From an uncultured Bacteriovorax sp. (lineage in GTDB: Bacteria > Bdellovibrionota > UBA1018), in NCBI GenBank assembly GCA_964432565.1, contig CAYSOA010000005.1:24022-88021 (forward strand): 64,000 bases of DNA, given 5' to 3'. The notes beneath the pieces are model-generated. The model saw only the letters and a list, made by a program, of their open reading frames with translations. It was not told the DNA's origin and made no database searches. Position numbers and translations under genes: made by a program. This document shows positions 10,448 to 28,092 of this stretch, in pieces; within the stretch, counting starts at the first letter, position 1; every line of letters starts with the position of its first letter.

Positions 10448-13400
10448 TCAAGGTCGTCCATCCGGACGACCTCCGCCAAGATCCCGCGATAGCTCTTGGA
10501 TACGGAAGTAGAGATCCTTCATCGAGCCGATCTGGTAGGTCGCAACGAACTTCGAGTCAGGAGTAAGCTGGTACCGACTGGGATGGGCAGAGACCAGAGC
10601 GATGGCGCGGATCGGGTCGAGAGAGCTTCCTGACCCTGGAATCAGGACGATCCTTTCACGCCCTGCCGTGACGGCGTCAATTTTCAGGCGCTTGAGGTGT
10701 ACCTTGCAGCGAATCAGCCAGAGCAGATTGGTCGCCTCTTCGGGCAGGCGACCAAACCGATCCCGAAGCTCTTCCTCGAGAGAGTCCACTTCCTGATCAG
10801 ATGCGCAGGACGATAGCTTGCGATACAGGGAGAGCCGATGGTGAAGATCCGGAACATAATTTTCGGCTAGAAATGCAGGAAAGGGAGCCTTGATCTCAGG
10901 GTCATGATTCGAGCGGCGCTCCTCTTCGATCACGCCATCCCGAATCTCCCGGACGGCTTCTTCGAGAAGTTCGAGGTAGAGATCAAAGCCGACGGCCTGG
11001 ATGTTGCCCGACTGTTGGGGCCCGAGCAGCTCCCCTCCCCCCCGAATCTCGAGATCATGAGATGCGATCTGAAAGCCACTGCCCAGCTCGACGAATCGCT
11101 GGATCACATCCAGCCTCTTTTTGGCGTCGTCGGAAAGGATGCTGTTCGGCGGAACGAGCAGATAGGCGTACGCACGCTGGTCTCCGCGGCCCACCCTTCC
11201 GCGGATCTGGTAGAGCTGTGCGAGGCCGAAGGTGTCGGCCCTGTCGACGATGATGGTGTTTGCGGAGGGAAGATCGATCCCGGATTCGATGATCGTCGTG
11301 CAAACAAGGACGTTGCTTCGCTTTTCATAGAACTCGGCAATCGCCGATTCGAGCTCTGCTTCGCTCATCTGGCCATGTGCCACGGTGATTCGAGCGGCCG
11401 GCACCAGTTCGTGAAGACGGCGTGCCGTCTCCTGGATGGTTTGAACCCGGTTGTGAAGAAAGAACGCCTGTCCTCCTCTTGTGATTTCGTAGTCGAGCGC
11501 CTTACGGATCACCTCGTCATCTCGCTGAGAAACGAAGGTACGAATGGGAAGTCGATTCACGGGAGGAGTCTGGATGAGACTGATGTCACGCAGTCCAGAA
11601 AGGGACATGTGCAGGGTACGGGGAATGGGCGTGGCCGACAGCGTCAGTACCGGAATGCTGGCCTTCAATGCCTTGAGCTTCTCCTTGTGATCGACTCCGA
11701 AGCGATGCTCCTCGTCGATGACCAGCAGACCAAGATCCTTGAACCGGATGTCCTTAGACAAAAGGCGATGCGTTCCGATGATGATGTCGACGCCACCGTC
11801 TGAAAGGCGCCCGAGCACGGCTTTTTGTTCGGCCTTCGACTTGAACCTCGAGATGGATTCGACCTGGACGGCTGTGCCGAGGAGACGGCGCTTGAAGCTC
11901 ACTTCGTGCTGGTGAGCGAGGATGGTCGTGGGTACTAGAACGGCCACCTGTTTGCCGTCGCAAGCGGCACGAAATGCCGCCCGAATGGCAACTTCCGTCT
12001 TGCCGTATCCGACGTCGCCACAGATCAGTCGATCCATGATCCGTCCCTGCTGCATGTCATCGATCGTCGAGTCGATGGCTCGGGCCTGATCAGGCGTTTC
12101 TTCATAGGGAAACTTGGCCTCGAACTCTTCGAAAAGGGCGTCGCGACCCGAAAAGCGGAAGCCTTGTCGGATCTTTCGCTCGGCGTAAAGGCGCACAAGA
12201 TCGACGGCAAGCTTTCGAACCGACTCCTTGACCCGATCCCTGGTCTTTTGAAACTGCTGGGAGCCCAGACGGTCGAGTGCAGCGCTGTCGCCTGCCGCAC
12301 CATGCTTTTGGATCAGATTGAGTCGATAAACGGGCAGGTAGAGCCTGTCGCGGTTGGCGTATTCGAGCAGGAGAAAGTCGGCTGCAGCACCGGAGAGTTC
12401 GAGTCGAACCATGCCCTGGAAGCGCCCGATTCCGTGGTCAACGTGAACGATGGTATCACCGGGAGAAAGGTCAGCTAGAGCCTGAAGGCCCGCCCAACTT
12501 TCTGAGGCATCAGAGTCGGCATCCCCGGAGCGCGAACGGCTCTTCGAGCCGGAGGTTCTTTTCTCGCCAAGAATCTCGGTCTCGGTCACTACAGCCAGCC
12601 TCTCGGCGGGCCATCTGAATCCGCTTGTGAGGGATGATCGGAAGCAGACCACGTCTTCAAGCCGACTCGACAGCAGGTGCTGGAGTCTTTCAGCCTGCCC
12701 ATCGGTCGGCGCGCAGACAACCACTTGAAAGCGCTGCTCCCTCCACCGAAGCACCTTTTGACGAAAAACCTCGAGTGACTTTTGGTTGGTGTCGGTGAGG
12801 TCTTGATTCAGTCGAACGGCTACGCGATGTCGTCCTCGTGGCCGAGCATCGGGGGTTTCGTCGATGCCATGATCGGGGAGCTCTGCTGGAGCAGTGACCT
12901 CCATCACTGTGATCAGCAGCCGAGCACGCTGAAAGAGCCGACCGATATTTCTGGCCACATCGCCGAACAACACATCGGGGGCGCAAACCAGCCGACGGAG
13001 CGTGGACGGGGTCTCGATGAGTCTTGCATGAGAGTCCCTGCACTCAGACAGGAGCAGGTCAAAAGACTGCTGGCATTCGAGGTCGTCATCCACAAGTAGG
13101 TGGAAGTCATCCTGGAGGTGGTCCAGCAGGGTGGCTTGCTGATCATAGGCCAGGAAGGCCCATGTTTCTGAGAACTCGGGCGGGATACCCGAAGAAATCT
13201 GTTCGAGGAGAGGGTCCCGAAAGGTTCTTGAAATCCCCAAGTCATCGGCGATCCGTTTCAGATTCGAGCGAAGTCGGGAGGACGTTTCGGAGTTGATCAA
13301 AACCTCCCTGCAGGGGCCGACGATGATCGTTTCAAGGCTCTCTCCGACCGAGCGCTGACTCCGGGGATCAAACGCCCGAATTCGCTCAATGACGTCATCA

Positions 13401-14103: not shown

Positions 14104-14550
14104 ATGGCCGGGATGGCCGCAGGAAACCATGGGTGGTTAGATTACTCGATCTTGCTTTTTCTTGCTGCTTTTGCGGTGGCGTTGCCGTTGCTGCTTCAGT
14201 TCGGGGCCCGGCTGCTTCGCTCAAAAGAACTTCAGCGAGATAGTTCGAAAGAAGGCGACTGCTTTCATGTCGAGCGAGATATCCCGACGAACCAATCCAT
14301 TCATACTCGCTATTTTTCGGCGGTCCAGGTCGGATCAGCCTGGGCCCTTCCGCTCGGTCTCTTGATCCCCATCGCGCACCCCGAAGTAAAAGAGTCGATC
14401 TATGCCACGATTTCCCTGCTGACGATTTGTCTGACCATGGGGGTTGCTCTCATCTATTTGAATCGCAAGGGTGACCTGAAGTGGATGGACTCAACCGGTA
14501 ACCCCGCAGACGACCGGGACACTGACTCTGAAGAAGAGGGCGCCGTTTGA
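14104..14550 (+). CDS. NuoA-like small membrane subunit of a paralogous complex-I-like set (set 1)
   Basis: 148 aa, 3 TM, heads a cluster of nuo homologs. Similar to canonical NuoA at 23559 but without a recognisable FD(V/I)E motif. Has an acidic C-terminal tail. Confidence 0.5.
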   Translation: MAGMAAGNHGWLDYSILLFLAAFAVALPLLLQFGARLLRSKELQRDSSKEGDCFHVERDIPTNQSIHTRYFSAVQVGSAWALPLGLLIPIAHPEVKESIYATISLLTICLTMGVALIYLNRKGDLKWMDSTGNPADDRDTDSEEEGAV

Positions 14551-15071
14551 TGAAGTCCTGGATAAGTCGGAGGATCGAGACATTGACCCGCTGGGCGGAC
14601 GCGAGCGCCCTACGTTATTTTCACGTCAAGGGTCTGTGTTGTTCGGATGAGTTTACCCAGACCGTAGCGGCCCGCTATGATCTAGAGAGATTCGGAGCGA
14701 TGCAGGAGGCCGACCATCGATCTGCGGACGTTCTCGTGGTCAGTGGGGCGATCAGCAGTGCTGCTGCCGAGCATCTGAGAACCATTTACGCAGAGATGAC
14801 TTCACCCCGATGGGTGATTGCCATCGGCAGCTGCGCCTGTTCGGGAGGTCTCTTCTCCCCTTCCAATGGCGGTGAGGCTCTTGCTGGGGTTTCTTCGGTT
14901 ATTCCGGTCGACGTCTTTGTGGTGGGCTGCCCCCCTCGTCCCGAAGCGATCATCGATGGCTGGATCCTTCTTCAGAAGAAGATTCAGGGACAAGTCACCG
15001 ACAGGACGGTTCGGAAAAAGAAGCGTCTTCCCGACAACCTGCTTCTGCAGGAAGACGGAGGCCCCGGATGA
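14547..15071 (+). CDS. NuoB-like subunit (set 1) retaining N2-cluster cysteines
   Basis: Motifs GLCCSDEF, GSCACSGG and VGCPP align with canonical [17 protein letters not shown] and PGCPP. ATGA overlap with the upstream gene. Confidence 0.7.
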   Translation: MMKSWISRRIETLTRWADASALRYFHVKGLCCSDEFTQTVAARYDLERFGAMQEADHRSADVLVVSGAISSAAAEHLRTIYAEMTSPRWVIAIGSCACSGGLFSPSNGGEALAGVSSVIPVDVFVVGCPPRPEAIIDGWILLQKKIQGQVTDRTVRKKKRLPDNLLLQEDGGPG

Positions 15072-16186
15072 ACGAGGCAGTGCTGGCGCGCAGAATTTCC
15101 TGGAGGATCGGACCGTTTCACTCGGCCTTGCCAGGGCCATTCGTGCTGGATTTGGAACTGGACGGAGAAGTCATCGCGGAGGCCCGGGCGACGGCAGGGT
15201 ATGGCGCCCGCGGCATCGAGTCCGTGATGCGACGGCTGGGCTGGGAGCAGGGGATTCCCGTAATGGACAGGCTCGACCCTGATTCAGGGATCTTCGGGGA
15301 GTGGGCTTATTGCCTAGCCATCGAACGTGCAATGGACATTGAAGTACCCGCCCGGGCAGTGGCGACTCGAGTCCTTCTTGGCGAACTTGTTCGGGTTTCC
15401 GCCCATCTGGCCCAGCTTGCCAGGGTTGCCCGTGAGGCGGGCTCAGAGATTGTTTTTCACTTCATGCTTCGAGAGCGGGAGCTCCTGCTGGATCTGATCG
15501 AGCTGGTGACGGGGGCTCGTCACTCCCCGGCCTTCCTGAGGATCGGGGGAGTTCGCGCCGATGTCAGTGAGGGATTCCTTGAGCGGCTACAGGAGACGAG
15601 TCAGGTGATTCTTGGACGAGTCGCAGAATACAATGATCTCCTTACCTATAATCAGGCATTCGTTCGCCGTGTGTCGGGAAGGGCCGTTCTCTCGGAGCAG
15701 CTGATTCGCGAGCACGGAATCAGTGGGATACCGCTTCGTATCGTCGACGATTCATCCGACCTGAGGTGGAGGGGGGAGATCGGAGGATACGATATGGTGC
15801 CTCATCAGCCTGTTTCTGCAGGAAGCCCGCTAGGAATAGCGGGGGACCTTCATCATCGTTTCGTCTTCCGGCTTCAAGAGGTGATTCAGAGCATCCAGAT
15901 CTGCCGCGAACTTTGTCAGAACCTTCCGGGCGGAGATCTTCGGGCCGATGTGGATCTGGCAAGAGTTCCGGCCGGGCGCCATTCGGCCCGAGTGGAGGCA
16001 CCACGGGGGCTTTTTCAGGTCACCGTCGAGTCTGATGGGTCGGCGAGACCGAAGGCGATCGAGTTCAGCACGCCGTCCGACGCCCTATTCTCTGCCATTC
16101 CGAAGATCCTTCAAGGGGCCCCTCTCGAGGACTTGGGGCTCTGGCTTGCAAGTATCGACCTGCAGATAGGCGAGGTGGACCGATGA
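15068..16186 (+). CDS. NuoD-like subunit (set 1), divergent
   Basis: 372 aa. GPFH, GYGARGIE, RIGGVRADV, VEAPRG and C-terminal IGEVDR align with NuoD (49-kDa subunit / NiFe-hydrogenase large-subunit fold). Lacks the roughly 30-aa N-terminal extension of canonical NuoD. Confidence 0.65.
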   Translation: MNEAVLARRISWRIGPFHSALPGPFVLDLELDGEVIAEARATAGYGARGIESVMRRLGWEQGIPVMDRLDPDSGIFGEWAYCLAIERAMDIEVPARAVATRVLLGELVRVSAHLAQLARVAREAGSEIVFHFMLRERELLLDLIELVTGARHSPAFLRIGGVRADVSEGFLERLQETSQVILGRVAEYNDLLTYNQAFVRRVSGRAVLSEQLIREHGISGIPLRIVDDSSDLRWRGEIGGYDMVPHQPVSAGSPLGIAGDLHHRFVFRLQEVIQSIQICRELCQNLPGGDLRADVDLARVPAGRHSARVEAPRGLFQVTVESDGSARPKAIEFSTPSDALFSAIPKILQGAPLEDLGLWLASIDLQIGEVDR

Positions 16187-17193
16187 ATGATTGGTTCAAG
16201 CTCTGGGTGGATCGCTGTGCTAGCAGCGGAGTATCCGTTGCTCTCTGTCTATTGATTTGCGTCTATCTTGCTGTCTGGATGGATCTGAAGGTCGGTGCCG
16301 ACGTCCAGGCCCGCGTCGGGCCGAATCGAGCCGGTGCCGCCGGGATTCTGCAGCCACTTGCCTCCTGGATACGAGAGCTTCTCAAGTTCTCTCCACATAT
16401 TGGCGGTGCCGGCTTTCAGCGGAGCTGGTGGGCACCCATGATTCCTTTGGTGTTGATGATTGGATTGGTGCCGACTACCGGGGCCGGACCACTCCTTCGA
16501 GCGCCGATGTCCGTGTTTCTGGCCCTTTTTCTGGGTCTCTGCTTTTCGTGCCTGGGTCTGATCATGGGATGGCGCTCAGGGCGCCTGGAGGTGAGGTTTG
16601 CCTCCATTCGAGCGGCATCACTCGCGCTGGCCGCAACGCCGCCAGCCTTGATGGCCATCACAGTGGCCGGCCGTGCTGCGGGAGGATTTTCGTGGGAGGC
16701 CATCGACCAGGCTCAGGGAGCGCTGCCGATGCAGTGGATTGGTTTTTCGGGCGCCTCGGGGCTGCTTGCGTCGGTGATCTTTCTTCTCGCAGGGATGCTG
16801 CTCTTTCTAATGCCCCCCTTTTCAAGTACCGGTCGAAACCTCAAACTCCTGATGAGTGCGATGGTTGGACCTGTTGGAGCACGGCAGCTCTGGGTGGAGC
16901 TGTCTGTTCGTGGTGCGGCGACCTGCTGGATGCTGCTTGCCGCGCATCTTTTTTGGGGCGGATCAAGAATTCCGCTGTGGCTGGAGCAGTTTCTAGGACC
17001 TGCTTCGCTCGCCACCAGGACCGTCGAGCTAGGTGTCATCTCCGCTAAGGTTCTTCTAATCCACCTGTTGATGTCACTGATGTCGAGGATGATGCCGACG
17101 GTGCGATCGGATCAGGCGCATGACTTCGCCTGGCGAGTGTTGACTCCGGCGGCACTGCTTTCTCTTGTCATGATGAAGCTGGGGGGCGCGTGA
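16183..17193 (+). CDS. NuoH-like membrane subunit (set 1)
   Basis: RVGPNRAGAAGILQPLASWIRELLKF matches the NuoH motif (RxGPNxxGxxGLLQPxAD). Polytopic. Confidence 0.6.
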   Translation: MNDWFKLWVDRCASSGVSVALCLLICVYLAVWMDLKVGADVQARVGPNRAGAAGILQPLASWIRELLKFSPHIGGAGFQRSWWAPMIPLVLMIGLVPTTGAGPLLRAPMSVFLALFLGLCFSCLGLIMGWRSGRLEVRFASIRAASLALAATPPALMAITVAGRAAGGFSWEAIDQAQGALPMQWIGFSGASGLLASVIFLLAGMLLFLMPPFSSTGRNLKLLMSAMVGPVGARQLWVELSVRGAATCWMLLAAHLFWGGSRIPLWLEQFLGPASLATRTVELGVISAKVLLIHLLMSLMSRMMPTVRSDQAHDFAWRVLTPAALLSLVMMKLGGA

Positions 17194-17720
17194 AATACGG
17201 ATTCGCTGGCGCCTTTATCGACTATTGGGGTTCGGTCTATCGATCCATTGCCTCCCTTTATCGGGCAGGAAAGGCCGGCGTCGCTTACCTTCGAGTTCGA
17301 AGCGAGACCAAAAAGGAAGTGACGGAGCAGTATCCGGATCCAGTCTCGTCTCGATCCTCCGAGGAGCTTCCGCCGAGAACTCGTGGCAAACTAAGGAACG
17401 ACATCCTCCGATGCACCGGGTGCGGCGACTGTGTGCGGATCTGTCCAACCAAGAGCATTTCCATGGAGACCATGGAGGGTGCAAAGCCAGGCAAGCTCTG
17501 GATTTCGATCTTCAACATCGATCACGCGAGTTGCATCGCTTGTGGACTTTGCGTTGACGTCTGTGAGCCGAGATCTCTGGTCCATGAGCGGGTTCATCAA
17601 GGTGCCGCCGTCAGTATCGAGGAGCATCTCCTGAGTTTTGGCCGGGGGGCGGTGTCCGAGAGCATGAGGGAGCTCTGGAGAAAACAACGCGTATTGGAGA
17701 GTGAAGGAGACCACCTATGA
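17190..17720 (+). CDS. NuoI-like 2x[4Fe-4S] ferredoxin subunit (set 1)
   Basis: Two CxxCxxCxxxCP motifs (CTGCGDCVRICP and CIACGLCVDVCEP). TEQYPDP aligns to canonical TIQYPEE. Confidence 0.65.
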   Translation: MKYGFAGAFIDYWGSVYRSIASLYRAGKAGVAYLRVRSETKKEVTEQYPDPVSSRSSEELPPRTRGKLRNDILRCTGCGDCVRICPTKSISMETMEGAKPGKLWISIFNIDHASCIACGLCVDVCEPRSLVHERVHQGAAVSIEEHLLSFGRGAVSESMRELWRKQRVLESEGDHL

Positions 17721-18220
17721 ATTCCTGGGTGATTGGGGTCTCACTGGGGTTGCTCGCAGTTTCTGCAGCCATCGTGTCTCTTTGGCGGGAGCCCCGCGCC
17801 GGCGCGATCGCAGCCTGGGTCAATGGGTGTGCCGCCGCCTCGGTGATGCTTTTGTTTCAGTCCGAGGTTTTGGCTTTGTTTCTGGCAATCAACTCGACCA
17901 TCGTTGCGCTAGCCGCCTTCTTGAACTCGGACACGATGGCCCTCAAGCCGCCGGAGTCGCACCGGTCGCCTTCCGTGTTCCACGTGAAGAATTGGCTTTC
18001 GCTTCTGGCGAGCGCGGCGCTTGGGGTGACCGTGGTCGGAGTGTTTCGCAGCACGATTCCGGTGCCTTTTGACGAACTTGCCGAGACCACCGCAAATGCC
18101 CTTGTGGGAGCTTCAACCGAGGAGAACCATGTGAGTTACCAGCTGGTTGCCCTGTTGGGACTGGTTGCAACCGTTGGCGCGGCCGTCATTGCCAGGCCGG
18201 AGAGGCCCGAGAATGATTGA
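17717..18220 (+). CDS. NuoJ-like membrane subunit (set 1)
   Basis: 167 aa, hydrophobic with about 5 TM. Its position between the NuoI-like and NuoK-like genes matches canonical order. Confidence 0.45.
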   Translation: MNSWVIGVSLGLLAVSAAIVSLWREPRAGAIAAWVNGCAAASVMLLFQSEVLALFLAINSTIVALAAFLNSDTMALKPPESHRSPSVFHVKNWLSLLASAALGVTVVGVFRSTIPVPFDELAETTANALVGASTEENHVSYQLVALLGLVATVGAAVIARPERPEND

Positions 18221-18506
18221 AGTGTTTGGCGCGTTGTTCGGAATCGGGTTTTTCGGTTTGTTGACCCAGAGATCGCTGGTTTCGGTTTTGTTGAATCTTC
18301 AGGTCATGGTGACGTCGCTGGTCCTAGTGCTGGTGGTCTCATCTCAGACTTTTTCTCCAGTGAGTCGAGAGAGAGCGGGCCACGCAGCACTGGCGATTCT
18401 GCTGGTGTTTGGAATCCAGGTTGCCGCCGCGCTGGCTTACGCGACGCGGCTTCACTATCTGAGGCGACGATCAGGCATGGATGATCTGAAGTCGATGAGG
18501 CACTGA
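18213..18506 (+). CDS. NuoK-like membrane subunit (set 1) with both conserved glutamates replaced by glutamine
   Basis: ATG 18213 overlaps the upstream stop. MIEVFGALFGIGFFGLLTQRSLVSVLLNLQVMV aligns to canonical Nuo[11 protein letters not shown] appears at both positions that are E in canonical NuoK (31597). Confidence 0.55.
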   Translation: MIEVFGALFGIGFFGLLTQRSLVSVLLNLQVMVTSLVLVLVVSSQTFSPVSRERAGHAALAILLVFGIQVAAALAYATRLHYLRRRSGMDDLKSMRH

Positions 18507-18508
18507 GC

Positions 18509-20431
18509 ATGGCGCGACAGTTCTTTCCCTGGATTCTTGTGCTCGCAATCAGTCTCTCCACGGTTTTCGCAATGCTCGGCGGTGGAATTCTGAATCGCTG
18601 GAGGACGCTTTTGAGCGGGCTGTGCTGGGCCGCCTTTCTGGGTTTAATCGCGGCGGCGATGATCATCATGACGGATGGAGGTGGACCGGCGCAATGGGCT
18701 GTGGATTTCATGGCCATTCCGATCAGCGCCGATGCTGCGAGGCTTGGGGTTGAGAACTCGCTGGTAGGCGTTCTGGTCTGCTGGCTGATCGCCCTGGTCT
18801 ACGGTTACGTTTTTTTTCTGGATCCCGCGTTTGGGGACAGATCGTCGGATTTCCGGCCCCAGGGGGGCAGCCACATTCAGGGCTCTGCGTGCCTCGGGAT
18901 GGTTGCCGTCGCGTTGGCCTGGTTTTCCTCGAGTTACTGGACCCTGCTCATGGCACAGGCTCTTTCAGTTTTGGCAGGGTGGACGGTGCTCTCAAGCCTC
19001 GCAAACTCCCGACTTTCTTCGGCGCCGGCATTTGCCCAGATCTCGGTGACCTTTCTTCGAGAGAAGGCTGGCTCCATGGCGCTTTTGATCCTGGGAGGGG
19101 GAATTTGCGCTTCGTCCGGCGCTTCGTTGGACTGGACCCGCACATCGCTTCATCTTCTTCCCGTCTCCGGTGTCGCGCTGATTCTCTTTGGGTGTCTTCT
19201 TCAGATGGGGATGTTTCCCGCAATCAGCTGGAATACTCGCCTGACAGGAGGGTGCAGCCTCCCGTCGAGCGTTCGGCTCCTATTGGTCAACCCGGCACAA
19301 TGGGTCTCTTTTGTCGTTGTTCTTCGTCTGTTCGGGACAGGTACCGTCCAGTTTCAATCGCTAGCCATGCCGATTCTTGTGGCAGTTCTCTTGACTACCC
19401 TTGTGGCGTTAGTCGCCAAACCTGCTCAGGCGGCGCTCACCCATGTCAGTGCCTCCCTCTCGGGACTGGCAGTGGCGGTACTGCTTCTTGCGGGAGTCCG
19501 GCAAGGAGCAGCGTTTTTCCTGACAAGCCAGCTGCTCCTCTGGGGGGCAGCCCTATTCCTGCGTCGCCCGTCCACAGGAACCCGTCTGGGACGGATCGAT
19601 CACTGGGTGGCAGGGCTATTGCCTCTCGCAATCTGCGCGGGGCCCGGAACGGTTTCTGCCGCGGCGTTGCTCGCATTATTGGAGGGATCGAGATCCTCTA
19701 TCATCCTCTCCCTTTCTGTGGCGGCCTGGATATTCTTCTCGCTTGCGATGGTTCGAGCGATGGCTCTGGGTGCTGCACCGACCGAGGGCACAGTCGAACA
19801 GGAGCTCGGCATGACGGATCGAACCTCGGCAGGATGGCGGGCGACGCCGGCCGTTGTTTTGGCCCTGATTTCGACGTCGATTCTCTGGACGGGAGACCTT
19901 GTGGGACGATTTTCGGGCCACGAGTTCGCCCCCGTCGGGCCAAACTGGTCGGGGGCGCTCTTTGGCACCGAGACCCTCGCTTTCCGATCAGCGCCGATGG
20001 ACTCGATCGTCTGGGGCTGGATGCTCACTCTCGTGGTTTTGGTGTCAGTCGATTCGGGCAAGCGCCTCGCACGAGCTGAATTGGGATTTCTTCGACTGGC
20101 GTCGGACGGCTATCGCGTTTCGATGCTCGTCGACCGCACCCTTCAACTGATGGTGCGAGCGCTGCTTCGCGCGGACCGTGGTCTGGCCATGATTGAGGCG
20201 CACGCGACAGACCTGGCACTGGCGCGAGGGTTCGGCTGGGTCTGTAGCGCGACTGCCGCTGCAGATCGCTGGTTGAGAGATCGGTTCGATCGGTTGGTCC
20301 GTGGAGCCATTGAAATACCGGCAAAGGGTGTTCAGTTACTGCAGGCGGGAAGTGTGCAGTTCTACATTCTGTTTGCGGTTGGATTCGTTTTGGCCATGTT
20401 GCTACATTTCTGGAGCCATCTGAACAGCTGA
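18509..20431 (+). CDS. NuoL-like antiporter-family subunit (set 1), highly divergent
   Basis: 640 aa, about 14+ TM, with a long C-terminal region. Motif LAGWTVLS aligns to canonical FLGWEGVG (TM5 Glu absent). Confidence 0.5.
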   Translation: MARQFFPWILVLAISLSTVFAMLGGGILNRWRTLLSGLCWAAFLGLIAAAMIIMTDGGGPAQWAVDFMAIPISADAARLGVENSLVGVLVCWLIALVYGYVFFLDPAFGDRSSDFRPQGGSHIQGSACLGMVAVALAWFSSSYWTLLMAQALSVLAGWTVLSSLANSRLSSAPAFAQISVTFLREKAGSMALLILGGGICASSGASLDWTRTSLHLLPVSGVALILFGCLLQMGMFPAISWNTRLTGGCSLPSSVRLLLVNPAQWVSFVVVLRLFGTGTVQFQSLAMPILVAVLLTTLVALVAKPAQAALTHVSASLSGLAVAVLLLAGVRQGAAFFLTSQLLLWGAALFLRRPSTGTRLGRIDHWVAGLLPLAICAGPGTVSAAALLALLEGSRSSIILSLSVAAWIFFSLAMVRAMALGAAPTEGTVEQELGMTDRTSAGWRATPAVVLALISTSILWTGDLVGRFSGHEFAPVGPNWSGALFGTETLAFRSAPMDSIVWGWMLTLVVLVSVDSGKRLARAELGFLRLASDGYRVSMLVDRTLQLMVRALLRADRGLAMIEAHATDLALARGFGWVCSATAAADRWLRDRFDRLVRGAIEIPAKGVQLLQAGSVQFYILFAVGFVLAMLLHFWSHLNS

Positions 20432-20442
20432 GGACGCAGACA

Positions 20443-22035
20443 GTGACCCTACCCCTACTGACAGCGATGATTCTAACGCCCCTTGCAGGTGCCGCGGTGC
20501 AGGCGATGACGCCGAGGCAACCGTTGTCGCGGCTGCTAGCCCTCTCCAGCAGCTTGATTTCAGCCATCATCGGTTTCGCGGTGCTGGCTGGGGCTTTTTC
20601 GGCCGATGACCCCGAATCCTTTCCGGAAAGATTCTCCTGGGTGGGATCCTATGCGATCTCCTACGATCTCGCCGTCGATGGCATGGCTCGGATTGCCGTA
20701 CTCATCGTCAGTGTCCTGTTTCCGGTCCTGATTGCCGCCGAATGGCGCCGATCGTCAGGGTTCCGGGGGTTTTACGCCCTTTTGCTCGTTCTTCAGGGTG
20801 CACTTCTGGGAACGGTCTGCGCTCAGGATCTTTTTCTTCTGTTCTTCTTCTGGGGCCTTTCCTCAGTGCCTGTGTTTTTTCTGGTCGGCGTGTGGGGGGC
20901 GGACGGACGTGAGGCGGCCGCCTTTCGAACGCTGGTCACCTCAGCGGCAGGTAATGCGCTGTTCTTCGGAGCGTTGATGCTGGTCTACCACGCGAGAGAC
21001 CCTCACACCTTTTCGATCGCCGAGCTCACTGGAGGATTGCTTCCAGAGCGGTCGATTTCGGTGGCTGGAGTCTCATTTTCTCTCGCGCATGTTTCTTTCC
21101 TGTTGGTCTGCCTTGGCGTGGCCCTCCGAGTCCCGGTCTGGCCGTTCCACGGCTGGTTCACTCGGCTTGCCGATGCCGCTCCTCCTACCGCGGCTGTTGC
21201 CGTTGCCGCCGCGATTGTTCCCTGCGGCGTGCAGATTCTTACCAGGCTGGGTCACCAGCTCTTTCCCAACAGCTTTTCAAATTATTCTGACGTGATCGTG
21301 CTGGTAGGGCTCGTCAATTTGATCATTGGTGCGCTCGCTGCGTTCGGGCAGCGAAAGCCGACGTCGCTTTTCTCGAGCCTCGTGCTTGCGGAGGTCGGTA
21401 TCTACCTGGTGGGCCTGGGGAGCAGCCATCCCAGTGCATTGCTAGGAACAGTTTATCATCAGCTTTGTAGTGCCCTGGCTCTGGCAGTGCTCGGGCTGCT
21501 ATTCGGCTCGATTTACCAGAAGAGTCCTCAGATCGACCTTCTGAGTCAGCGCTCGGGATCGGCTGCGCTCATGAGCGATGCACCTGTTGCGGGTGTCGTG
21601 ATGGCCTTGTCGCTGGCGACGCTGGCAGGGGTTCCCGGGCTGGGGGGGTTCATCGGACAGAGTCTGGTGCTCATGGGCGGGTTCGTGCGCTCGCCGATGA
21701 TACTGGCGCTGGTCGGCATGTCGGTTCTTCTGATCGGCATATGCCTTTTTGGAACGTACCGGGTGCTGTTTCTTGGTGGGGGGACCCAGGGGCGTTCCGG
21801 GGAGTCTCACGAGCTTTCATTCCGAGAGAAAACTTACCTCATCCCTCTGGTGGTTCTGATGGTTGCTCTGGGTGTTTATCCCAAGCCCCTCCTCGACGTC
21901 ATTCACCCGGCGACGGATCGTCTGGTAGTTTCGGGCACCGATGTTCCTCGTGATGTCGGTGGAGCACCAGACTCCGGGATCTTGCCGAACGGTGAGCAGC
22001 CCCCCATCGTCGAGTCGTCGGAAGCCCGGGAATGA
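20443..22035 (+). CDS. NuoM-like antiporter-family subunit (set 1), divergent
   Basis: 530 aa polytopic. FFWGLSSVPVFFLVGVWG aligns to canonical FWEFMLIPMYFLIGIWG. ALRVPVWPFHGWF aligns to AIKVPLFPLHTWL. Confidence 0.5.
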   Translation: MTLPLLTAMILTPLAGAAVQAMTPRQPLSRLLALSSSLISAIIGFAVLAGAFSADDPESFPERFSWVGSYAISYDLAVDGMARIAVLIVSVLFPVLIAAEWRRSSGFRGFYALLLVLQGALLGTVCAQDLFLLFFFWGLSSVPVFFLVGVWGADGREAAAFRTLVTSAAGNALFFGALMLVYHARDPHTFSIAELTGGLLPERSISVAGVSFSLAHVSFLLVCLGVALRVPVWPFHGWFTRLADAAPPTAAVAVAAAIVPCGVQILTRLGHQLFPNSFSNYSDVIVLVGLVNLIIGALAAFGQRKPTSLFSSLVLAEVGIYLVGLGSSHPSALLGTVYHQLCSALALAVLGLLFGSIYQKSPQIDLLSQRSGSAALMSDAPVAGVVMALSLATLAGVPGLGGFIGQSLVLMGGFVRSPMILALVGMSVLLIGICLFGTYRVLFLGGGTQGRSGESHELSFREKTYLIPLVVLMVALGVYPKPLLDVIHPATDRLVVSGTDVPRDVGGAPDSGILPNGEQPPIVESSEARE

Positions 22036-23522
22036 ATGCACTGATTTTTCTGCTGCCGGAAATCTACCTCGTTGCGACGGCCCTTGGACTGGTCGTCGCA
22101 GAGAGTTCGCATCATGGTGAGCGAGTGAGGCTGGCGCTGCCCACCAGTCTCCTAGGAATTTCGGGAGCATTGATTCAGGTGCTTTTGTCCTACCGCGGTG
22201 GCCCCACCCAGATCTTTGCCGGCACCTTGACCGTCGATGGTTTCACCCTATTCTTCAAGATGCTCTTTCTGGCGCTAGCGGCAATTGTCGTGACCTCCGC
22301 CTGTATCGGGCACGAAATTCCACGAAGGCTGCGTTCGGAGTTCTGCTCGTTGGCGCTTCTTGGAACCGTGGCATTGATGCTGGCGGCAAGTTCCTCCAAT
22401 CTTTTCGTCACCGTTCTGGCACTTCAACTGGCCGGGTGTGTGGGCTATTTTCTGGCCGGATTTCAGAAAGAGAGTGCCCGGTCGGCCGAAGCTTCGGTGA
22501 AGTGGATGATGTCTTCCCTGGTTTCGGGGGTGTTTCTGCTTCTTGGGGCGATGGTTCTGTTCCTGATGACCGGAACCGTGAACCTCTATGAGCTCAGCCA
22601 GCTTCTGTCGGCCGGGGGATATTCAGCCCGCGAGGCGGTTCTGGTTTTTTCGATCATTTTTCTGGGTCTCAGCATGCCGATGATGATCTTCCCAGGACAT
22701 CTTTGGGCGGCTGATGTCCTGCAGGGGGCCAATACTGCGGCAGGGACCTACCTTGCTGCCGGCCTCAGAGCGGCCACCTTCGCCGTTGCCTCCAGGGTTT
22801 GGGTCATTGTTTTTTCCAGCGCCAACGGCGACTCGGGCCGCTGGCTGCCGATGGGAGGATGGGACTGGACCCGCTGGTTGGGGTTTAGTGCGGCAATGAC
22901 TTTGGTGCTTCCCGCCCTGATGAGTGTGCGCCAGCAGAGTGCAAAACGGCTGCTGGCCTGCGTCGCCACAGTTCAGGGTGGCTTTCTGCTGCTTGGCCTG
23001 CTGGTCCTCGAAGAGATCGGGCTTGCAGCCGTGCTCTTCGGACTGCTGGTGGAACTTTTGTCCTTTGGTGGTCTGATGTTCGTGCTGTCATTGGCGGTGT
23101 CACGGAGCGGCTCAGATGAGCTCGACCGGCTTCGGGGCTGCCTTCGTGGTCGTCCATGGGAATCCGTGGCACTTCTGCTTTGCTCGATCGCATGGGTGGG
23201 CCTGCCACCCTTTGCAGGGCAGATCGGAAGGTTCGCCTTGATGGGGGCTGCAGTCCGGCGGGAGTGGTTCATTCTTGCCTTCGTGGGGCTTCTGGCGACC
23301 GTTTTAACGGTTGGGGCAATGGGGCGCCTCATGCTGACGGTGCTGGACCTGGGCGGTGAGTCGCGATCCCGGGTGGTTCAGGGGAGCGCTGGCCTCGAGC
23401 GCACTCCTTTCGATGTGCGGAGCTTTCTTGTCGGAGTTCTGGTGCCGTTGGCTACGGTCACCATTTTGGCGGACTGGCTCTTGCGGTGGACCAGCCATTC
23501 CCTGAAGTTTATTTTCTGGTAG
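22032..23522 (+). CDS. NuoN-like antiporter-family subunit (set 1), divergent
   Basis: 496 aa polytopic. N-terminal LPEIYLVATALGL is like NuoN. VLALQLAGCVGYFLAGF aligns to canonical IALELMSISVYVLVGF. Confidence 0.5.
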   Translation: MNALIFLLPEIYLVATALGLVVAESSHHGERVRLALPTSLLGISGALIQVLLSYRGGPTQIFAGTLTVDGFTLFFKMLFLALAAIVVTSACIGHEIPRRLRSEFCSLALLGTVALMLAASSSNLFVTVLALQLAGCVGYFLAGFQKESARSAEASVKWMMSSLVSGVFLLLGAMVLFLMTGTVNLYELSQLLSAGGYSAREAVLVFSIIFLGLSMPMMIFPGHLWAADVLQGANTAAGTYLAAGLRAATFAVASRVWVIVFSSANGDSGRWLPMGGWDWTRWLGFSAAMTLVLPALMSVRQQSAKRLLACVATVQGGFLLLGLLVLEEIGLAAVLFGLLVELLSFGGLMFVLSLAVSRSGSDELDRLRGCLRGRPWESVALLLCSIAWVGLPPFAGQIGRFALMGAAVRREWFILAFVGLLATVLTVGAMGRLMLTVLDLGGESRSRVVQGSAGLERTPFDVRSFLVGVLVPLATVTILADWLLRWTSHSLKFIFW

Positions 23523-23558
23523 CTCGCTCTTCTTCCGCTGCGCTATAACCCAGAAGCA

Positions 23559-23918
23559 ATGGAATACATTCCGGTTCTGATCCTGATGGCCGTCGGTACG
23601 GCGGTCGGGGTGGGCGCGATGACGTTGTCGGCCCTCCTTGGACCCAAAGCCCCTAATCGACGCAAGAATATGCCGTTCGAGTGTGGTGTCGAGCCGCATG
23701 GCGATGCACGACACCGATTCTCGGTGCGTTTCTATCTTGTTGCGATTTTGTTTCTACTTTTTGATGTCGAGGCACTGTTCTTCTATCCATGGGCGGTTGT
23801 TTATAAGAAATATCTGAGCATCAACGCCTTCATTCTTTTTGAGATGGCGGCGTTCGTGCTCATCCTTCTGGTGGGTTATCTCTACGTCCTGGGCAAAGGT
23901 GCCCTCGAGTGGGATTAG
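23559..23918 (+). CDS. nuoA: NADH-quinone oxidoreductase subunit A
   Basis: Canonical NuoA motifs PFECGVEP and [15 protein letters not shown]. Confidence 0.9.
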
Positions 23919-23955
23919 ACCCCGTCTTCGAATTTCATCGAGAGGCGCAACAAGT

Positions 23956-24468
23956 ATGTCTAAAGACGGATCATCCAGCTTCCTGACAACCAAACTCGAG
24001 GCGATTGTGGACTGGGGTCGCAAGAATGCCCTGTGGCCGCTGCCCTTCGGTACCAGCTGCTGCGGCATCGAGATGATGGCCACTTTTGCTGCGGACTACG
24101 ATATCGGCCGCTTTGGTGCCGAGGCCCTGCGCTTCTCCCCGAGGCAGGCGGACCTTCTGATCGTTGCAGGGATCGTGAACGCCAAGATGGCCCCGGTTCT
24201 CAAGAATATCTACGACCAGATGGCCGATCCCAAGTGGGTTATCTCAATGGGGGCCTGCGCGTCATCGGGAGGCATTTTCAACGTGTATAGTGTCACCCAG
24301 GGTATCGACACCATCATCCCAGTGGACGTCTACGTTCCGGGTTGTCCTCCGGCGCCCGAAGGGGTCCTTCATGGGCTGATGCGCCTTCAGGAGCTGATCC
24401 AGAAGGGCGAGACCCATCACCACCGATGCGAGCGGGCCCGACGTGCAGGAAAGGAGGCCCAGTCATGA
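23956..24468 (+). CDS. nuoB: NADH-quinone oxidoreductase subunit B
   Basis: [22 protein letters not shown] and [10 protein letters not shown] 23956 follows SD GAGG, whereas the ORF-track start 23839 adds a non-homologous extension. Confidence 0.9.
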
Positions 24469-25043
24469 GGGGTGCAGACATTCGGACTCCCGTGTCGACA
24501 GTTTACGGCGATTTCTCGAAGAAGTTCGCAGAGACTTGGAAGTCTCAGGTTCAGGAGCTGCAACAGAGATTCGGGGCCGTCATTGAAGAGGTTCGATGGC
24601 CCGGTGTTTACCCCACCGATGTTCCCATTGTCTTTGTGGCTCGCGAGTCGATCGTCGATGTGCTTCGGGTCCTTAAGGAAGAGTCCGCGTTCCGGTATGA
24701 CTTTCTGGCAGACATCACGGCGACGGATGAGGAAGTAGAGCCGCGCTTCGAGGTGGTCTACAACCTGGCGTCGATTGCATCGGGGTCGCGGATTCGCGTC
24801 AAGGTTCGAGCGCGTGAAGACGAGCAAGTCCCGTCTGTGACCGTTGTTTGGGCCGGAGCAGACTGGGCTGAGCGCGAGGTATGGGACATGTTTGGGATCC
24901 GCTTTCGCGGCCACCCGGATCTGCGCCGGATTCTGATGGATGAGCGCTGGGAGGGACATCCCCTGCGCAAGGATTACCCTCTTCGTGGCTATCAGCTTTT
25001 TCCAGATACCCAGCCCATCAACGTCGAACTGCTCAAGGATTGA
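24465..25043 (+). CDS. nuoC: NADH-quinone oxidoreductase subunit C
   Basis: 30-kDa-subunit family ([22 protein letters not shown]). ATG 24465 follows SD AAGGAGG and overlaps the nuoB stop. Confidence 0.85.
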
Positions 25044-25046
25044 TCG

Positions 25047-26318
25047 ATGGAACAGCAAAGACCGCATGGAGAGTTCGGGCTTCCCGCATCTGACAACTAT
25101 ACGATCAGCGTGGATGTTCCAGCGCATGAGCACGATCCGGATGACCTTTGGAAGGATTCGAGGGTTTTCGTCAATATCGGCCCCACCCACCCAGCCATGC
25201 ACGGCGCATTGCGGATGTGCGCCCGGTTGAATGGCGAAACGATCGAAAAGTCCTATTGCGAGTTTGGCTACACACACCGGGCAAAAGAGAAGCTCGGAGA
25301 GAATCGCACCTACCACAACTTTATCGTTTATACGGACCGGCTGAACTATTGCTCGGCACTGATCAACAATGTGACCTATGCCATGGCGGTGGAGCGCCTC
25401 ATGGGCATTGAGGTTCCCGATCGCGCCGTGTGGATTCGCATGATCTGCACCGAGATGGCTCGCGTCATCGATCACTTGATTTGTGTTGGCGTCAACGCGC
25501 TCGATCTCGGCGCTTTTTCTTTCTTCCTGTATGGCTTTCATCAGCGAGAAGAGGCCTACACCCTGATCGAGAAGATTTGTGGAGCGCGCCTGACGACCTC
25601 CTACACCCGAATCGGCGGTTTGATGGCGGATGCTCCCGCAGGCTGGGAGAAGGAAGTCAAGGACTGGGTCATTCGTACCCGGAAGACAGTTCAAGAGATG
25701 GACTCTCTTCTGACCAATAATCGCATCTGGTGCGACCGCACCCAGGGTGTCGGGGTATTCACGAAAGATCAGTGCATGAAGTACAGCTATTCGGGGCCGA
25801 ATGCCCGGGCGGCCGGTATCAATCGCGACCTCCGTCGCGATCAGCCTTCCATGTTCTACGACAAGGTCGAGTTTGATGTCCCTGTCGGAAAGAATGGCGA
25901 CGTCTTTGATCGTTACATGGTCCGAATGGCCGAGATCTTTCAGTCTCTCAACATCATCGCCCAGTGCGCGGAAAAGATGCACCCCGGGCCGATCTGGTCC
26001 GAGGACAAGCGAATCCGCATTCCGGACAAGGACGTCGTTCACAACACGATGGAAGGCCTGATCCACCACTTCAAGTTCTTCATGACGGGCTTCGACGTTC
26101 CTGCTGGTGAGGCGTACACGAGCTTCGAGGCGACCAATGGCGAGCTCGCTTTCTATATTGTCAGCAAGGGTGGACCGAGAGCCCATCGTATGCGAATCCG
26201 CGGACCATCGGTTTGGCACTACCAGGGCCTGAGCGAGATGTCTGAAGGGGCGAAGATCGCCGACATGGTTGCGGCGCTCGGTTCGATCAATATCATCGCA
26301 GGCGAGCTGGATCGCTGA
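25047..26318 (+). CDS. nuoD: NADH-quinone oxidoreductase subunit D
   Basis: 423 aa with GPTHPAMHG, RLNYC, RIGGLMAD and a C-terminal IIAGELDR. Confidence 0.9.
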   Translation: MEQQRPHGEFGLPASDNYTISVDVPAHEHDPDDLWKDSRVFVNIGPTHPAMHGALRMCARLNGETIEKSYCEFGYTHRAKEKLGENRTYHNFIVYTDRLNYCSALINNVTYAMAVERLMGIEVPDRAVWIRMICTEMARVIDHLICVGVNALDLGAFSFFLYGFHQREEAYTLIEKICGARLTTSYTRIGGLMADAPAGWEKEVKDWVIRTRKTVQEMDSLLTNNRIWCDRTQGVGVFTKDQCMKYSYSGPNARAAGINRDLRRDQPSMFYDKVEFDVPVGKNGDVFDRYMVRMAEIFQSLNIIAQCAEKMHPGPIWSEDKRIRIPDKDVVHNTMEGLIHHFKFFMTGFDVPAGEAYTSFEATNGELAFYIVSKGGPRAHRMRIRGPSVWHYQGLSEMSEGAKIADMVAALGSINIIAGELDR

Positions 26319-26329
26319 GGAGGAAGACG

Positions 26330-26803
26330 ATGTCCAAGCTTCTGTCCCAAAAGTTTTATGACGAGATGAATAAGCTCGAGCCACGCTATCCAACCAAGGT
26401 GGCGCTGCTCTTGCCGGCACTTCATGCGGCGCAGTCGGAGTTCGGCTGGTTGCCGGGTGAAGTCATGGACGAGATCGGTGAGTACATCGGAATTCACCCG
26501 GCGCAGGTGCGCGAGGTGGCCAGCTTTTACACGATGTACAATCTCAAGCCCGTCGGAAAATACCACCTGAAGATCTGCACGAATGTAGCGTGCTGCCTGC
26601 GTGGGGCTGATGAGCTGGTGGAGCACTGCGAGAAGAAGTTCGGCATCCAGTGCGGCGAAACCACCCCGGACAAGCGCTTTACCCTGATGGAAGAAGAGTG
26701 TCTCGGTGCCTGTGGGACGGCCCCCGCCATGATGTTGAACGATGACTACCACGAGAATCTGACCGCCGAGAAGCTGGACCAGCTCTTGGCAGGCCTGAAA
26801 TGA
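26330..26803 (+). CDS. nuoE: NADH-quinone oxidoreductase subunit E (24 kDa, [2Fe-2S])
   Basis: Cys pattern CTNVACCLRG...CLGACGTAP typical of NuoE. Confidence 0.85.
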   Translation: MSKLLSQKFYDEMNKLEPRYPTKVALLLPALHAAQSEFGWLPGEVMDEIGEYIGIHPAQVREVASFYTMYNLKPVGKYHLKICTNVACCLRGADELVEHCEKKFGIQCGETTPDKRFTLMEEECLGACGTAPAMMLNDDYHENLTAEKLDQLLAGLK

Positions 26804-28092
26804 GCGAGGAACGGGCGATGTCTGAATCCACTCCAATGTTCAAGCCGCACTTCCATGAGGAGGCGCGTCCACTCGCCTATTATCTGGCGAAAATGAATGG
26901 CTATACGGCGTTGAAGAAGGCACTTGGGATGGCGCCTGACGCCATCATCGACGAGATGAAGAAGTCCAACATGCGAGGCCGCGGTGGCGCAGGTTTTCCC
27001 ACCGGCATCAAGTGGGGATTTATCCCGAAGCAGAGCTCCAAGCCGAAGTATCTGGTCTGCAATGCCGATGAGTCGGAGCCCGGAACCTTCAAGGATCGGG
27101 ACATCATGCGCTACACGCCACACCTGCTCATCGAGGGCATGGTGATCGGGGCGCATGCCATTGGAGCAAACAGTGGTTATATCTATATTCGGGGGGAATA
27201 TACCCGAGAGGCGCGCCTCCTGAATGAGGCCATCGATGAGGCCTATGACAAGGGTTATCTCGGCAAGAACATCCTGGGCTCGGGATTTCACTTCGACCTG
27301 ACGGTACATCGTGGGGCCGGCGCCTACATCTGCGGAGAGGAGACCGCACTGCTGAACTCCCTTGAGGGCAAGCGCGGCGAGCCTCGGGTGAAGCCGCCGT
27401 TTCCGGCACAATCCGGAGCCTTTGCCGGTCCGACCATTGTGAACAATGTCGAAACCCTTGCAGCAGTTCCCATGATCATCAACGAGGGTGGCGAGTGGTT
27501 TGCCAAGCTTGGCAGGCTTGAGAAGTCGGGTGGTACCCGTCTCCTGTCGGTTTCAGGCCATGTCAAGAAGCCCGGCGTGTACGAGATTGGCGCGGGCAGC
27601 ATGACCATTCGGCAGATCATTTTTGATCTGTGCGGAGGAGTCCTGGGCGACAAGAAGTTGAAGGCCGTCATTCCCGGCGGATCTTCGGCTCCGGTGCTCA
27701 CCGCTGACGAAATCGACGTGATTTACGACATTGAGCCCCTGATGAAGATCGGCTCAATGATGGGGTCGGCCGCACTGATGGTGGTCAGCGAGGATTACTG
27801 CGTGGTGAAGCTGATCAAGCGCATCACGAAGTTCTATGAACATGAGTCCTGCGGGCAGTGCACGCCGTGCCGAGAGGGTTGCAAGTGGATGGAGGATATC
27901 CTTCATCGCATCGAGCACGGCCACGGCCGCGAGCAGGATCTGGATCTGCTTTTAGACATCGCAGAAAACATCAACGGAAAGACGCTTTGCGCGCTGGGCG
28001 ATGCCGCCGCAGGCCCGGTCTCCAGTTTCGTGAAGAAGTTTCGCGCCGACTTTGAAGCGCACATTCGAGGTGGAAAATGCCCAAATGCATAA
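26800..28092 (+). CDS. nuoF: NADH-quinone oxidoreductase subunit F (51 kDa; NADH/FMN/[4Fe-4S])
   Basis: GRGGAGFPTGIKW, GEETALLNSLEG and C-terminal CGQCTPCREG. Confidence 0.9.
   Translation: MSEERAMSESTPMFKPHFHEEARPLAYYLAKMNGYTALKKALGMAPDAIIDEMKKSNMRGRGGAGFPTGIKWGFIPKQSSKPKYLVCNADESEPGTFKDRDIMRYTPHLLIEGMVIGAHAIGANSGYIYIRGEYTREARLLNEAIDEAYDKGYLGKNILGSGFHFDLTVHRGAGAYICGEETALLNSLEGKRGEPRVKPPFPAQSGAFAGPTIVNNVETLAAVPMIINEGGEWFAKLGRLEKSGGTRLLSVSGHVKKPGVYEIGAGSMTIRQIIFDLCGGVLGDKKLKAVIPGGSSAPVLTADEIDVIYDIEPLMKIGSMMGSAALMVVSEDYCVVKLIKRITKFYEHESCGQCTPCREGCKWMEDILHRIEHGHGREQDLDLLLDIAENINGKTLCALGDAAAGPVSSFVKKFRADFEAHIRGGKCPNA

Follow-up and report, generated by a model that had tools for sequence, protein, structure and literature searches.

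Complex I and its relatives carry charged relay residues in their membrane subunits, and in MBH, MBS and Mrp these relay sites are regarded as functional. In complex I itself, relay roles have been assigned to E133, K217, K247 and K395 of NuoN, E144, K234, K265 and E407 of NuoM, K229, D178, K399 and D400 of NuoL, and E36 and E72 of NuoK (PMC9271201; PMC13073174; residue numbering is that of Escherichia coli here and below, unless stated otherwise). Point mutants of the E. coli enzyme (NuoN K247A/K395A, NuoM E407K and others) alter one site each and lose part of the activity (PMC13073174; PMC9271201). In the cyanobacterial complex NDH-1MS (NdhD3/NdhF3/CupA) two subunits are exchanged and CupA adds chemistry, while proton pumping is retained (PMC6981117; PMC6358722). 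Papers on the nuo clusters of the Bdellovibrio group describe other arrangements than the one reported here (cultured Bacteriovorax and Peredibacter; PMC13147790), and in the literature we found no described de-charged or non-pumping complex I, either in Bdellovibrionota or elsewhere. In this work we analyzed a stretch of 64,000 nucleotides from contig CAYSOA010000005.1 of an uncultured Bacteriovorax sp. (hereafter, the window), which contains a second, strongly altered complex-I-type gene set beside a canonical one.

The two sets lie back to back on the + strand. The downstream one, set-2 (23559–36970), is a canonical nuoA–N cluster of 14 genes in which all key residues are present. The upstream one, set-1 (14104–23522), consists of ten tightly packed or overlapping genes similar to nuoA, B, D, H, I, J, K, L, M and N. 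It thus encodes ten of the 11 subunits of the Q and P modules (A, B, C, D, H, I, J, K, L, M, N), with NuoC missing in the window; genes nuoC, nuoE, nuoF and nuoG were not found in set-1 of the window. We propose, with a probability of roughly 0.55, that set-1 encodes a structurally intact derivative of the 11-subunit complex I that is maintained by selection and would act as a non-electrogenic redox module, produced alongside the genuine pump.

The first-pass annotation of this DNA, made from the sequence by eye, covered the span 18213–23522, which corresponds exactly to the K-, L-, M- and N-like genes, and claimed that every key glutamate of the membrane arm is replaced there. All the set-1 peptides on which it relied are present: LNLQVM at residues 27–32 and GIQVAA at 67–72 of the NuoK-like protein, VLALQLAG at 128–135 of the NuoN-like protein, LVLQGALLG at 115–123 and FFWGLS at 135–140 of the NuoM-like protein, and LAGWTVLS at 155–162 of the NuoL-like protein. 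Set-2 contains the canonical counterparts quoted with them (SIELML, AAAEAAV, IALELMSI, LMLETGMLG, FWEFML and FLGWEGVG). We read the replacements from alignments to solved complex I chains, to the canonical set-2 and within the families of orthologues.

In the NuoK-like protein (18213–18506; 97 amino acids, identified by alignments to Nqo11/NuoK chains in the PDB), E36 is replaced by Q30 and E72 by Q69. The NuoN-like protein (22032–23522; 496 amino acids, identified by PDB alignments and the family table) has Q132 in place of E133, P216 in place of K217, R246 in place of K247 and R400 in place of K395. In the NuoM-like protein (20443–22035; 530 amino acids, identified by PDB alignments, a 95-member family, AlphaFold and Foldseek), E144 corresponds to G138, K234 to R229, K265 to P260 and E407 to Q406. 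The two glutamate-to-glutamine changes in NuoK, that in NuoN and the glutamate-to-glycine change in NuoM, all noticed in the first reading, were confirmed by the solved-structure and family alignments. The change of LMLE to LVLQ in NuoM, which had been counted with them, does not concern a canonical key site, since E. coli NuoM has no glutamate at this position.

The NuoL-like protein (18509–20431; 640 amino acids) is very divergent, and phmmer gave no match to solved structures even at E ≤ 10. Because of this divergence its identity was established by profile–profile alignment: a profile of ten orthologues was aligned by hhalign to a canonical NuoL profile (n = 42) over its full length, with a probability of 98.6% and an E-value of 5.8e-16. 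The aligned span takes in the C-terminal lateral helix and transmembrane helix (TM) 16 with its QxGxxQxY motif, both of which are kept. K229 is replaced by Q232, and H334, H338, K342, K399 and D400 by F, Q, W, A and A, respectively; the TM12 sites fall on A384/A385 according to hhalign and on L386/L387 according to MAFFT. For TM5, a change of glutamate to threonine had been proposed. In the profile–profile alignment and in MAFFT the TM5 glutamate lies opposite A151, and only the GW register gives T159; however, residues 118–184 contain neither aspartate nor glutamate, so that the glutamate is gone in either register.

In each of set-1 NuoL, NuoM and NuoN, the TM5 glutamate and TM7 lysine, the TM8 lysine or histidine, and the TM12 lysine or glutamate are replaced. 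The statement that every key glutamate is replaced holds for the canonical sites, to which E407 of NuoM, overlooked at first, has to be added; it does not hold for the arm as a whole, where Glu185 of NuoL and Glu317 of NuoM remain. It should be mentioned that set-1 NuoL, NuoM and NuoN are poor in lysine and rich in arginine, with a K/(K+R) ratio of 0.10–0.15 as compared to 0.30–0.62 in set-2 (18509–23522 versus 31916–36970); NuoL contains four lysines in set-1 and 24 in set-2.

As controls we used canonical subunits from unrelated metagenome contigs (NuoK, n = 34; NuoL, n = 42; NuoM, n = 75; NuoN, n = 9). They came from loci found in a metagenome scan with NuoM-family patterns that proved too generic: 79 of the 80 loci were not scored as members of the family (one of these, L011, later turned out to be a relative with partial charge loss), only L005 being a family member, and the loci were reused as canonical controls. 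The relay sites were retained in 33–34 of 34 NuoK, 41–42 of 42 NuoL, 68–75 of 75 NuoM and 8–9 of 9 NuoN sequences. More precisely, E36 of NuoK was present in all 34 controls and E72 in 33; eight of the nine NuoL sites were kept in 42/42; in NuoM, K234 and E407 were kept in 74/75 and K265 in 75/75, and the E144 site was Glu in 68 and Asp in six. Since canonical controls keep these positions almost without exception, the combined loss of relay residues read from the set-1 alignments is far beyond chance.

To what extent the replacements are shared could be seen from the orthologues. Those of the NuoM-like protein form a family of about 95 clusters with E-values from 1e-285 to 1e-80, canonical NuoM appearing only from about 1e-50; their source names are Bdellovibrionales, Oligoflexia and Bdellovibrio sp. 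metagenome-assembled genomes (MAGs). Glutamate was found at the E144 site in none of the 95 (Gly, Ala, Ser, Thr and one Met stand there), K234 was Arg in 95/95, K265 was almost always Pro, and E407 was mostly His, Gln or Asn. The glutamine of the LVLQ motif is nearly invariant in the family. An exhaustive hidden Markov model search of 1.84 billion representatives, clustered at 50% identity, revealed about 60 further de-charged NuoM proteins, of which one bears the name Bacteriovoracia, and, beyond these, scattered NuoM proteins that are partly degenerate. For the NuoL-like protein, one distant relative only was found in an index of 5.8 billion proteins; searches with the single sequence and with the 10-sequence profile returned two proteins each, the word prefilter probably being swamped by hydrophobic sequences. 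In public metagenomes, the NuoM-like proteins P0118, P0155 (source name 'Deltaproteobacteria bacterium' MAG), P0164, P0172, P0176, P0180, P0192, P0194, P0222 and P0232 show a partial loss of E144, K234, K265 and E407. Degenerate antiporter-like subunits, as judged from such residues, may be more widespread than the set-1 family.

Gene sets were compared in ten loci from Bdellovibrionota MAGs (L001/L003, L004, L005, L085–L090, plus one without DNA). Wherever the upstream flank was recovered, the layout was the same, namely mfd on the opposite strand, set-1, and canonical nuoA–N; in L004 and L085, which are cut at the contig end, set-2 still directly follows set-1. The replacements in NuoK, NuoN, NuoL, NuoD, NuoH, NuoA and NuoJ recur across these loci, K229 of NuoL being Gln in seven of the ten. 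The first-pass annotation would have been refuted if its substitutions were not conserved in orthologues; instead, glutamine was found in TM2 of NuoK in 9/10 loci and in TM5 of NuoN also in 9/10, and the E144 glutamate of NuoM was absent from all 95 family members. NuoE, NuoF and NuoG are absent from set-1 in all ten loci and are present only in the adjacent set-2. Most set-1 clusters consist of eleven genes including nuoC, and a sub-clade comprising the window, L001/L003 and L087 is devoid of it.

Several details of these loci deserve mention. In relatives, nuoC of set-1 is located at 3989–4531 of L086 and at 3898–4443 of L088, which corresponds to the B/D junction at 15068 in the window, and NuoB of the nuoC-less clade is extended at its C-terminus by about 17 residues. 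At L086:13037–17581 the B, C/D and F genes of set-2 are split into fragments, which may be assembly frameshift errors and not biology. L003 (CAMAQA010000029.1) is titled 'MAG: Bacteriovorax stolpii'; its tandem layout differs from that of the nuo genes in cultured Bacteriovorax/Peredibacter (PMC13147790), and the label may be loose.

The loss is not restricted to the glutamates noticed at first: it extends to the partner lysines and histidines, to the quinone ligands of NuoD and to the NuoH loop. In the NuoD-like protein (15068–16186; 372 amino acids; NCBIfam NuoD, 258 bits, under the cut-off of 360), His38 and Tyr87, the ligands of the quinone head group (Thermus thermophilus Nqo4 numbering), are replaced by Pro21 and Pro71, and about 25 amino acids are deleted. 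The Tyr87 position is Pro in eight of eight set-1 NuoD sequences (motif LDP), and the His38 position is Pro or Ser in seven of seven, whereas set-2 and ordinary 11-subunit controls keep Tyr and His. Asp139 was considered as a third lost quinone residue and dropped, because ordinary 11-subunit controls also have Ser there. Set-1 NuoD carries the sequence GPFHSALPGP near its N-terminus and ends with IGEVDR, a C-terminus of the complex I type; the NiFe cysteine motifs (RxCGxC ... DPCxxC) are absent from it, and NCBIfam ranks NuoD and FpoD for it, not hydrogenase large subunits.

In the NuoH-like protein (16183–17193; 336 amino acids; NCBIfam NuoH, 73 bits versus a cut-off of 305), the ERR motif, E157 and the acidic TM5–6 loop ETNRxPFDLxEGESE are all replaced. 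The NuoA-like protein (14104–14550; 148 amino acids; no NCBIfam match, assigned from its place in the cluster and from alignments to set-2 NuoA and orthologues) lacks the PFECG and FDVE (D79/E81) motifs, and the NuoJ-like protein (17717–18220; 167 amino acids; no family match, assigned by position and alignment) has Ser at the TM3 Tyr59 position. The NuoH loop and E-channel, D79/E81 of NuoA and E36/E72 of NuoK are replaced both in the window and across the family. With the quinone ligands and the NuoH loop rewritten as well, set-1 departs from complex I, on the residues compared, in more than a silenced membrane arm.

In contrast to all these sites, the ligands of the iron-sulfur (Fe-S) clusters were kept. 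The NuoB-like protein (14547–15071; 174 amino acids; NCBIfam NuoB, 152 bits) retains all four cysteine ligands of N2 (CC at 31–32, C96 and C128), and the NuoI-like protein (17190–17720; 176 amino acids; matched in NCBIfam) retains both CxxCxxCxxxCP motifs of N6a and N6b, so that all 12 cysteine ligands of N2, N6a and N6b are present in the window. They are conserved among the aligned set-1 sequences (NuoB, n = 8; NuoI, n = 10), with a CGC variant in NuoB of L005. The NuoI-like protein is also extended at both ends, by about 35 residues at the N-terminus and, at the C-terminus, by a stretch that carries the family-conserved sequence FGRGxV..RE.W. Neither extension occurs in canonical NuoI, and an electron donor could dock there. 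Taken over the whole set, NCBIfam recognised B, D, H, I, K, M and N as Nuo proteins, mostly under the curated cut-offs; A and J gave no match and L a marginal one only.

Comparison of the same genome pairs (window, L001 and L004; 14104–23522 for set-1 and 23559–29477 for set-2) revealed that set-2 proteins are 82–95% identical (NuoC about 76%) and set-1 proteins only 35–63%; set-1 therefore evolves several-fold faster than set-2. For L001 versus L004, at a synonymous divergence (dS) of about 0.85, ω (dN/dS) was 0.05–0.13 for I, J, K, L, M and N as compared to 0.01–0.08 for set-2, and for the window versus its nearest relative L091 (dS 0.34–0.6) it was 0.05–0.22; dS was unsaturated in these comparisons. 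The set-1 genes are clearly under purifying selection. All ten of their open reading frames (ORFs) are intact, with start and stop codons overlapping or abutting.

A model of the NuoM-like protein made by AlphaFold from an 85-sequence family alignment had a predicted local distance difference test score (pLDDT) of 90.8 and a predicted template modelling score (pTM) of 0.91. The break in TM7, with R229 inside it, and that in TM12, with Q406 just after it, are both kept. According to Foldseek, the model has a TM-score of 0.86–0.90 to solved NuoM chains and also matches the MrpD, MbhH and MbsH folds at lower scores. The model of the NuoL-like protein, built from a two-sequence alignment, had a pLDDT of 33.8 and was unusable. 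The suggestion that selection has favoured an intact but non-protonatable arm, and that this is not decay, agrees with the values of ω (0.05–0.22) and with the confidence of the NuoM model.

Recent duplication of set-2 was rejected as the origin of set-1, as in BLAST searches with set-1 B, D, I, H, M and N the set-2 proteins ranked very low. In set-1, the B, D, I, M and N proteins resemble those of 11-subunit clusters on other contigs (L009, L007 and L006) more than those of set-2 of Bdellovibrionota. The ordinary 11-subunit clusters L009 and L007, used as controls, keep every pumping residue, Tyr87 and His38, while set-1 keeps none of the tabulated relay and quinone residues. The same tandem was found in L011, a metagenome contig of low guanine–cytosine content, in which an 11-gene nuo cluster (2940–13051) is followed by canonical nuoA–G... 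(16259–21487). Its first cluster is only partly de-charged: TM5 Glu and TM12 Lys of NuoN, TM8 Lys of NuoM, and TM7 Lys and TM8 His of NuoL are retained; in NuoD, Tyr87 is present and His38 is changed to Ile. Judging by this mixture, L011 may be an evolutionary intermediate of charge loss. Clusters of another kind (L008:5262–13015 and L022:5302–18697) ranked with the top matches of the set-1 NuoH-like protein; they comprise only the membrane arm genes A-H-J-K-L-M-N without B, C, D and I, and L022 contains two of them in tandem.

In the window, mfd lies upstream of set-1 on the opposite strand, and the wider neighbourhood is of the housekeeping type (uvrA, pgm, pdxA, SurA-like peptidyl-prolyl isomerases, a TPR protein and serS). 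Set-1 nuoN-like and set-2 nuoA are separated by a spacer of 36 nucleotides (23523–23558), in which neither a terminator-like hairpin nor a promoter-like site on the + strand was found. From this arrangement, set-1 and set-2 are probably co-transcribed. In set-2, the longest ORF of nuoM begins 65 nucleotides inside nuoL (33819–33883); its real start is probably a later Met (MAWLDSHLL...).

Thus, it can be hypothesized that set-1 belongs to a lineage of the 11-subunit type, without the NuoEFG module, in which NuoC would have been lost as well, leaving ten genes. Its proteins would assemble as an L-shaped complex in which the N6a–N6b–N2 chain still conducts electrons. These would be delivered to the NuoI-like subunit by a soluble donor of low potential, as in other 11-subunit enzymes, or by NuoEFG (with NuoC) encoded by the downstream genes, and would pass from N2 to some acceptor in the remodelled cavity. 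Charge translocation would not be coupled to this transfer, and the membrane arm would serve as an anchor or a scaffold.

Several observations weigh against this proposal. The loss of His38 and Tyr87 makes ordinary quinone reduction by set-1 unlikely, and the Fe-S clusters might be kept for folding only. E. coli tolerates single substitutions such as E133A of NuoN (PMC13073174), so that the argument for a non-pumping arm rests on the combined loss and not on any one site. The charge of the arm is not removed completely either: an invariant Glu185 is located in TM6 of the NuoL-like protein near the D178 position, Glu317 is conserved in the NuoM-like protein at the H322 position, and in many family members the TM12 residue is His (NuoM) or Lys (NuoN). 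Parts of the family may therefore conceivably have some proton transfer left, or an unconventional form of it. Finally, the sub-clade of the window is the most eroded one, being without NuoC, the HRGxEK motif and the family-specific motif of the NuoH loop, and a structural role would account for this erosion nearly as well as a redox one.

A bolder and more tentative version of the redox proposal, to which we give clearly less credit, is that set-1 represents a new class of complex: an L-shaped assembly with an Fe-S wire, devoid of classical quinone reduction and ion translocation, which would have either a new acceptor or an obligate function as a pump-dead partner.

Among the competing explanations, the strongest, though rather unlikely in our view, is that set-1 forms an inert pseudo-complex, a dead paralogue that would serve canonical complex I as a structural, assembly or regulatory partner (for example, as a scaffold, as the other half of a dimer or by organising the membrane) and would keep its Fe-S clusters for folding only. 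It would account for the strict adjacency of set-1 and set-2 in ten loci with no terminator in between, for the loss of the quinone ligands and the coupling loop, for the progressive erosion in the clade of the window, loss of NuoC included, and for the several-fold faster evolution of set-1 (35–63% versus 82–95% identity). It is harder to reconcile with the conservation of the 12 Fe-S cysteine ligands while NuoM identity within the family drops to 37%. In addition, new family-specific motifs that are conserved line the pocket of the former quinone site (in NuoD, GPYHxALPGP and LDPE; in NuoH of the clade with NuoC, PPLDGGLSxxDIHGGVSSH), which suggests that this site is functionally constrained.

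Set-1 could alternatively be a set of exchangeable parts. Set-1 and set-2 would then build a hybrid complex I with a lower or zero H+/e- ratio, suited to high proton-motive force or to redox balancing, in which set-1 either shares NuoC, NuoE, NuoF and NuoG or replaces individual antiporter-like subunits. The genes missing from set-1 (nuoE, nuoF, nuoG and, in the clade of the window, nuoC) are indeed encoded in the adjacent set-2, with which it is probably co-transcribed. Nevertheless, we consider this gear-shift improbable: the whole Q-module and membrane arm are duplicated, not the antiporter-like subunits alone; set-1 NuoD and NuoH are without quinone chemistry; and set-1 is closer to the 11-subunit clusters of other lineages, which makes its fit with the interfaces of set-2 doubtful.

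Of similarly low probability is an ion translocator with altered specificity or an unconventional mechanism, such as an anion or Na+ path or wires of water with Gln, His or Arg. Polar residues do occupy former charged sites (Gln in TM2 of NuoK, TM5 of NuoN and TM7 of NuoL; Arg in TM7 of NuoM and in TM8 and TM12 of NuoN; His at TM12 of NuoM in many members), and the broken helices are kept. But the known Na+ and H+ paths of Mrp and the relatives of complex I use the same carboxylate and lysine sites, both partners of which are gone here; the arm has no compensating acids apart from Glu185 of NuoL and Glu317 of NuoM; Arg and Gln are poor proton carriers; and the driving machinery, that is the quinone site and the NuoH loop, is rewritten too. 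The first-pass annotation had left the choice between a non-pumping and an ion-altered module. The former is what the residues point to; the latter appears less likely, given the missing acids and partner lysines. A decaying duplicate on the way to pseudogenes, which the high rate of set-1 relative to set-2 and the subunits scoring under curated cut-offs or matching no family might suggest, is effectively refuted by dN/dS (ω 0.05–0.22 in ten intact ORFs), by the conservation of synteny and of specific replacement residues across a deep family, and by the confident structure model of NuoM.

Set-1 is of considerable interest to specialists in complex I. Work on the charged axis of this enzyme has relied on single-site mutants, and in set-1 nearly all relay residues are removed at once. 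The residues that protonate quinone are gone too, while the architecture, the Fe-S ligands and purifying selection have been kept across a wide branch of uncultured Bdellovibrionota. If the complex assembles, it would provide a natural pump-dead scaffold that separates the structural roles of antiporter-like subunits from the catalytic ones, and a case of a large respiratory machine being repurposed, with L011 as a possible intermediate. If it indeed forms a new class, the architecture of complex I would have been preserved for a purpose independent of energy conservation. There is also a warning for annotation, since genes of the set-1 type routinely receive the name 'NADH-quinone oxidoreductase subunit M/N', and a metabolic reconstruction would take them for a second proton pump.

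Comparison with known systems shows what set-1 shares with each of them and where it departs. With MBH, MBS and Mrp it has in common the ancestry of the NuoB-, NuoD-, NuoI- and NuoH-like and antiporter-like subunits, and MBS illustrates that the catalytic pocket of a NuoD homologue can be repurposed. Unlike MBH and MBS, set-1 has a NuoD with the C-terminus of complex I and without NiFe cysteines, and its gene order is that of nuo; in the ranking of solved chains and family profiles, complex I's NuoM and NuoN stand above MrpD, MbhH and MbsH. The E. coli point mutants affect the same positions, but in set-1 nearly all of them are changed together and fixed under purifying selection. NDH-1MS resembles set-1 in having alternative complex-I membrane subunits beside the standard enzyme and a role other than plain respiration; in set-1, however, duplication and loss of charge affect the entire module, and an additional catalytic domain was not seen.

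The 11-subunit relatives (NUO11 of Chlorobi and Firmicutes, cyanobacterial and plastid NDH-1, and Fpo-like complexes; PMC4758237; PMC3144371) have the composition A-B-C-D-H-I-J-K-L-M-N found in most members of the set-1 family. They differ in that the 11-subunit controls keep the pumping residues, Tyr87 and His38, while set-1 keeps none of those tabulated; furthermore, no ferredoxin-docking or other input subunit is encoded beside set-1. With canonical complex I (E. coli, 7Z7S and 3RKO; T. thermophilus, 4HEA; and set-2), set-1 shares (i) homologous A, B, D, H, I, J, K, L, M and N subunits in the same gene order, (ii) the cysteines of N2, N6a and N6b, (iii) the discontinuous TM7 and TM12 of NuoM, and (iv) the lateral helix and TM16 of NuoL. 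It differs from it in the absence of NuoE, NuoF and NuoG, and in the window also of NuoC, as well as in the replacement of Tyr87 and His38 of NuoD, the acidic loop of NuoH, E36 and E72 of NuoK, and nearly all relays of NuoL, NuoM and NuoN. Because the features that define a proton-pumping complex I in functional terms are missing from its predicted proteins, set-1 ought not to be classified as another NADH:quinone proton pump.

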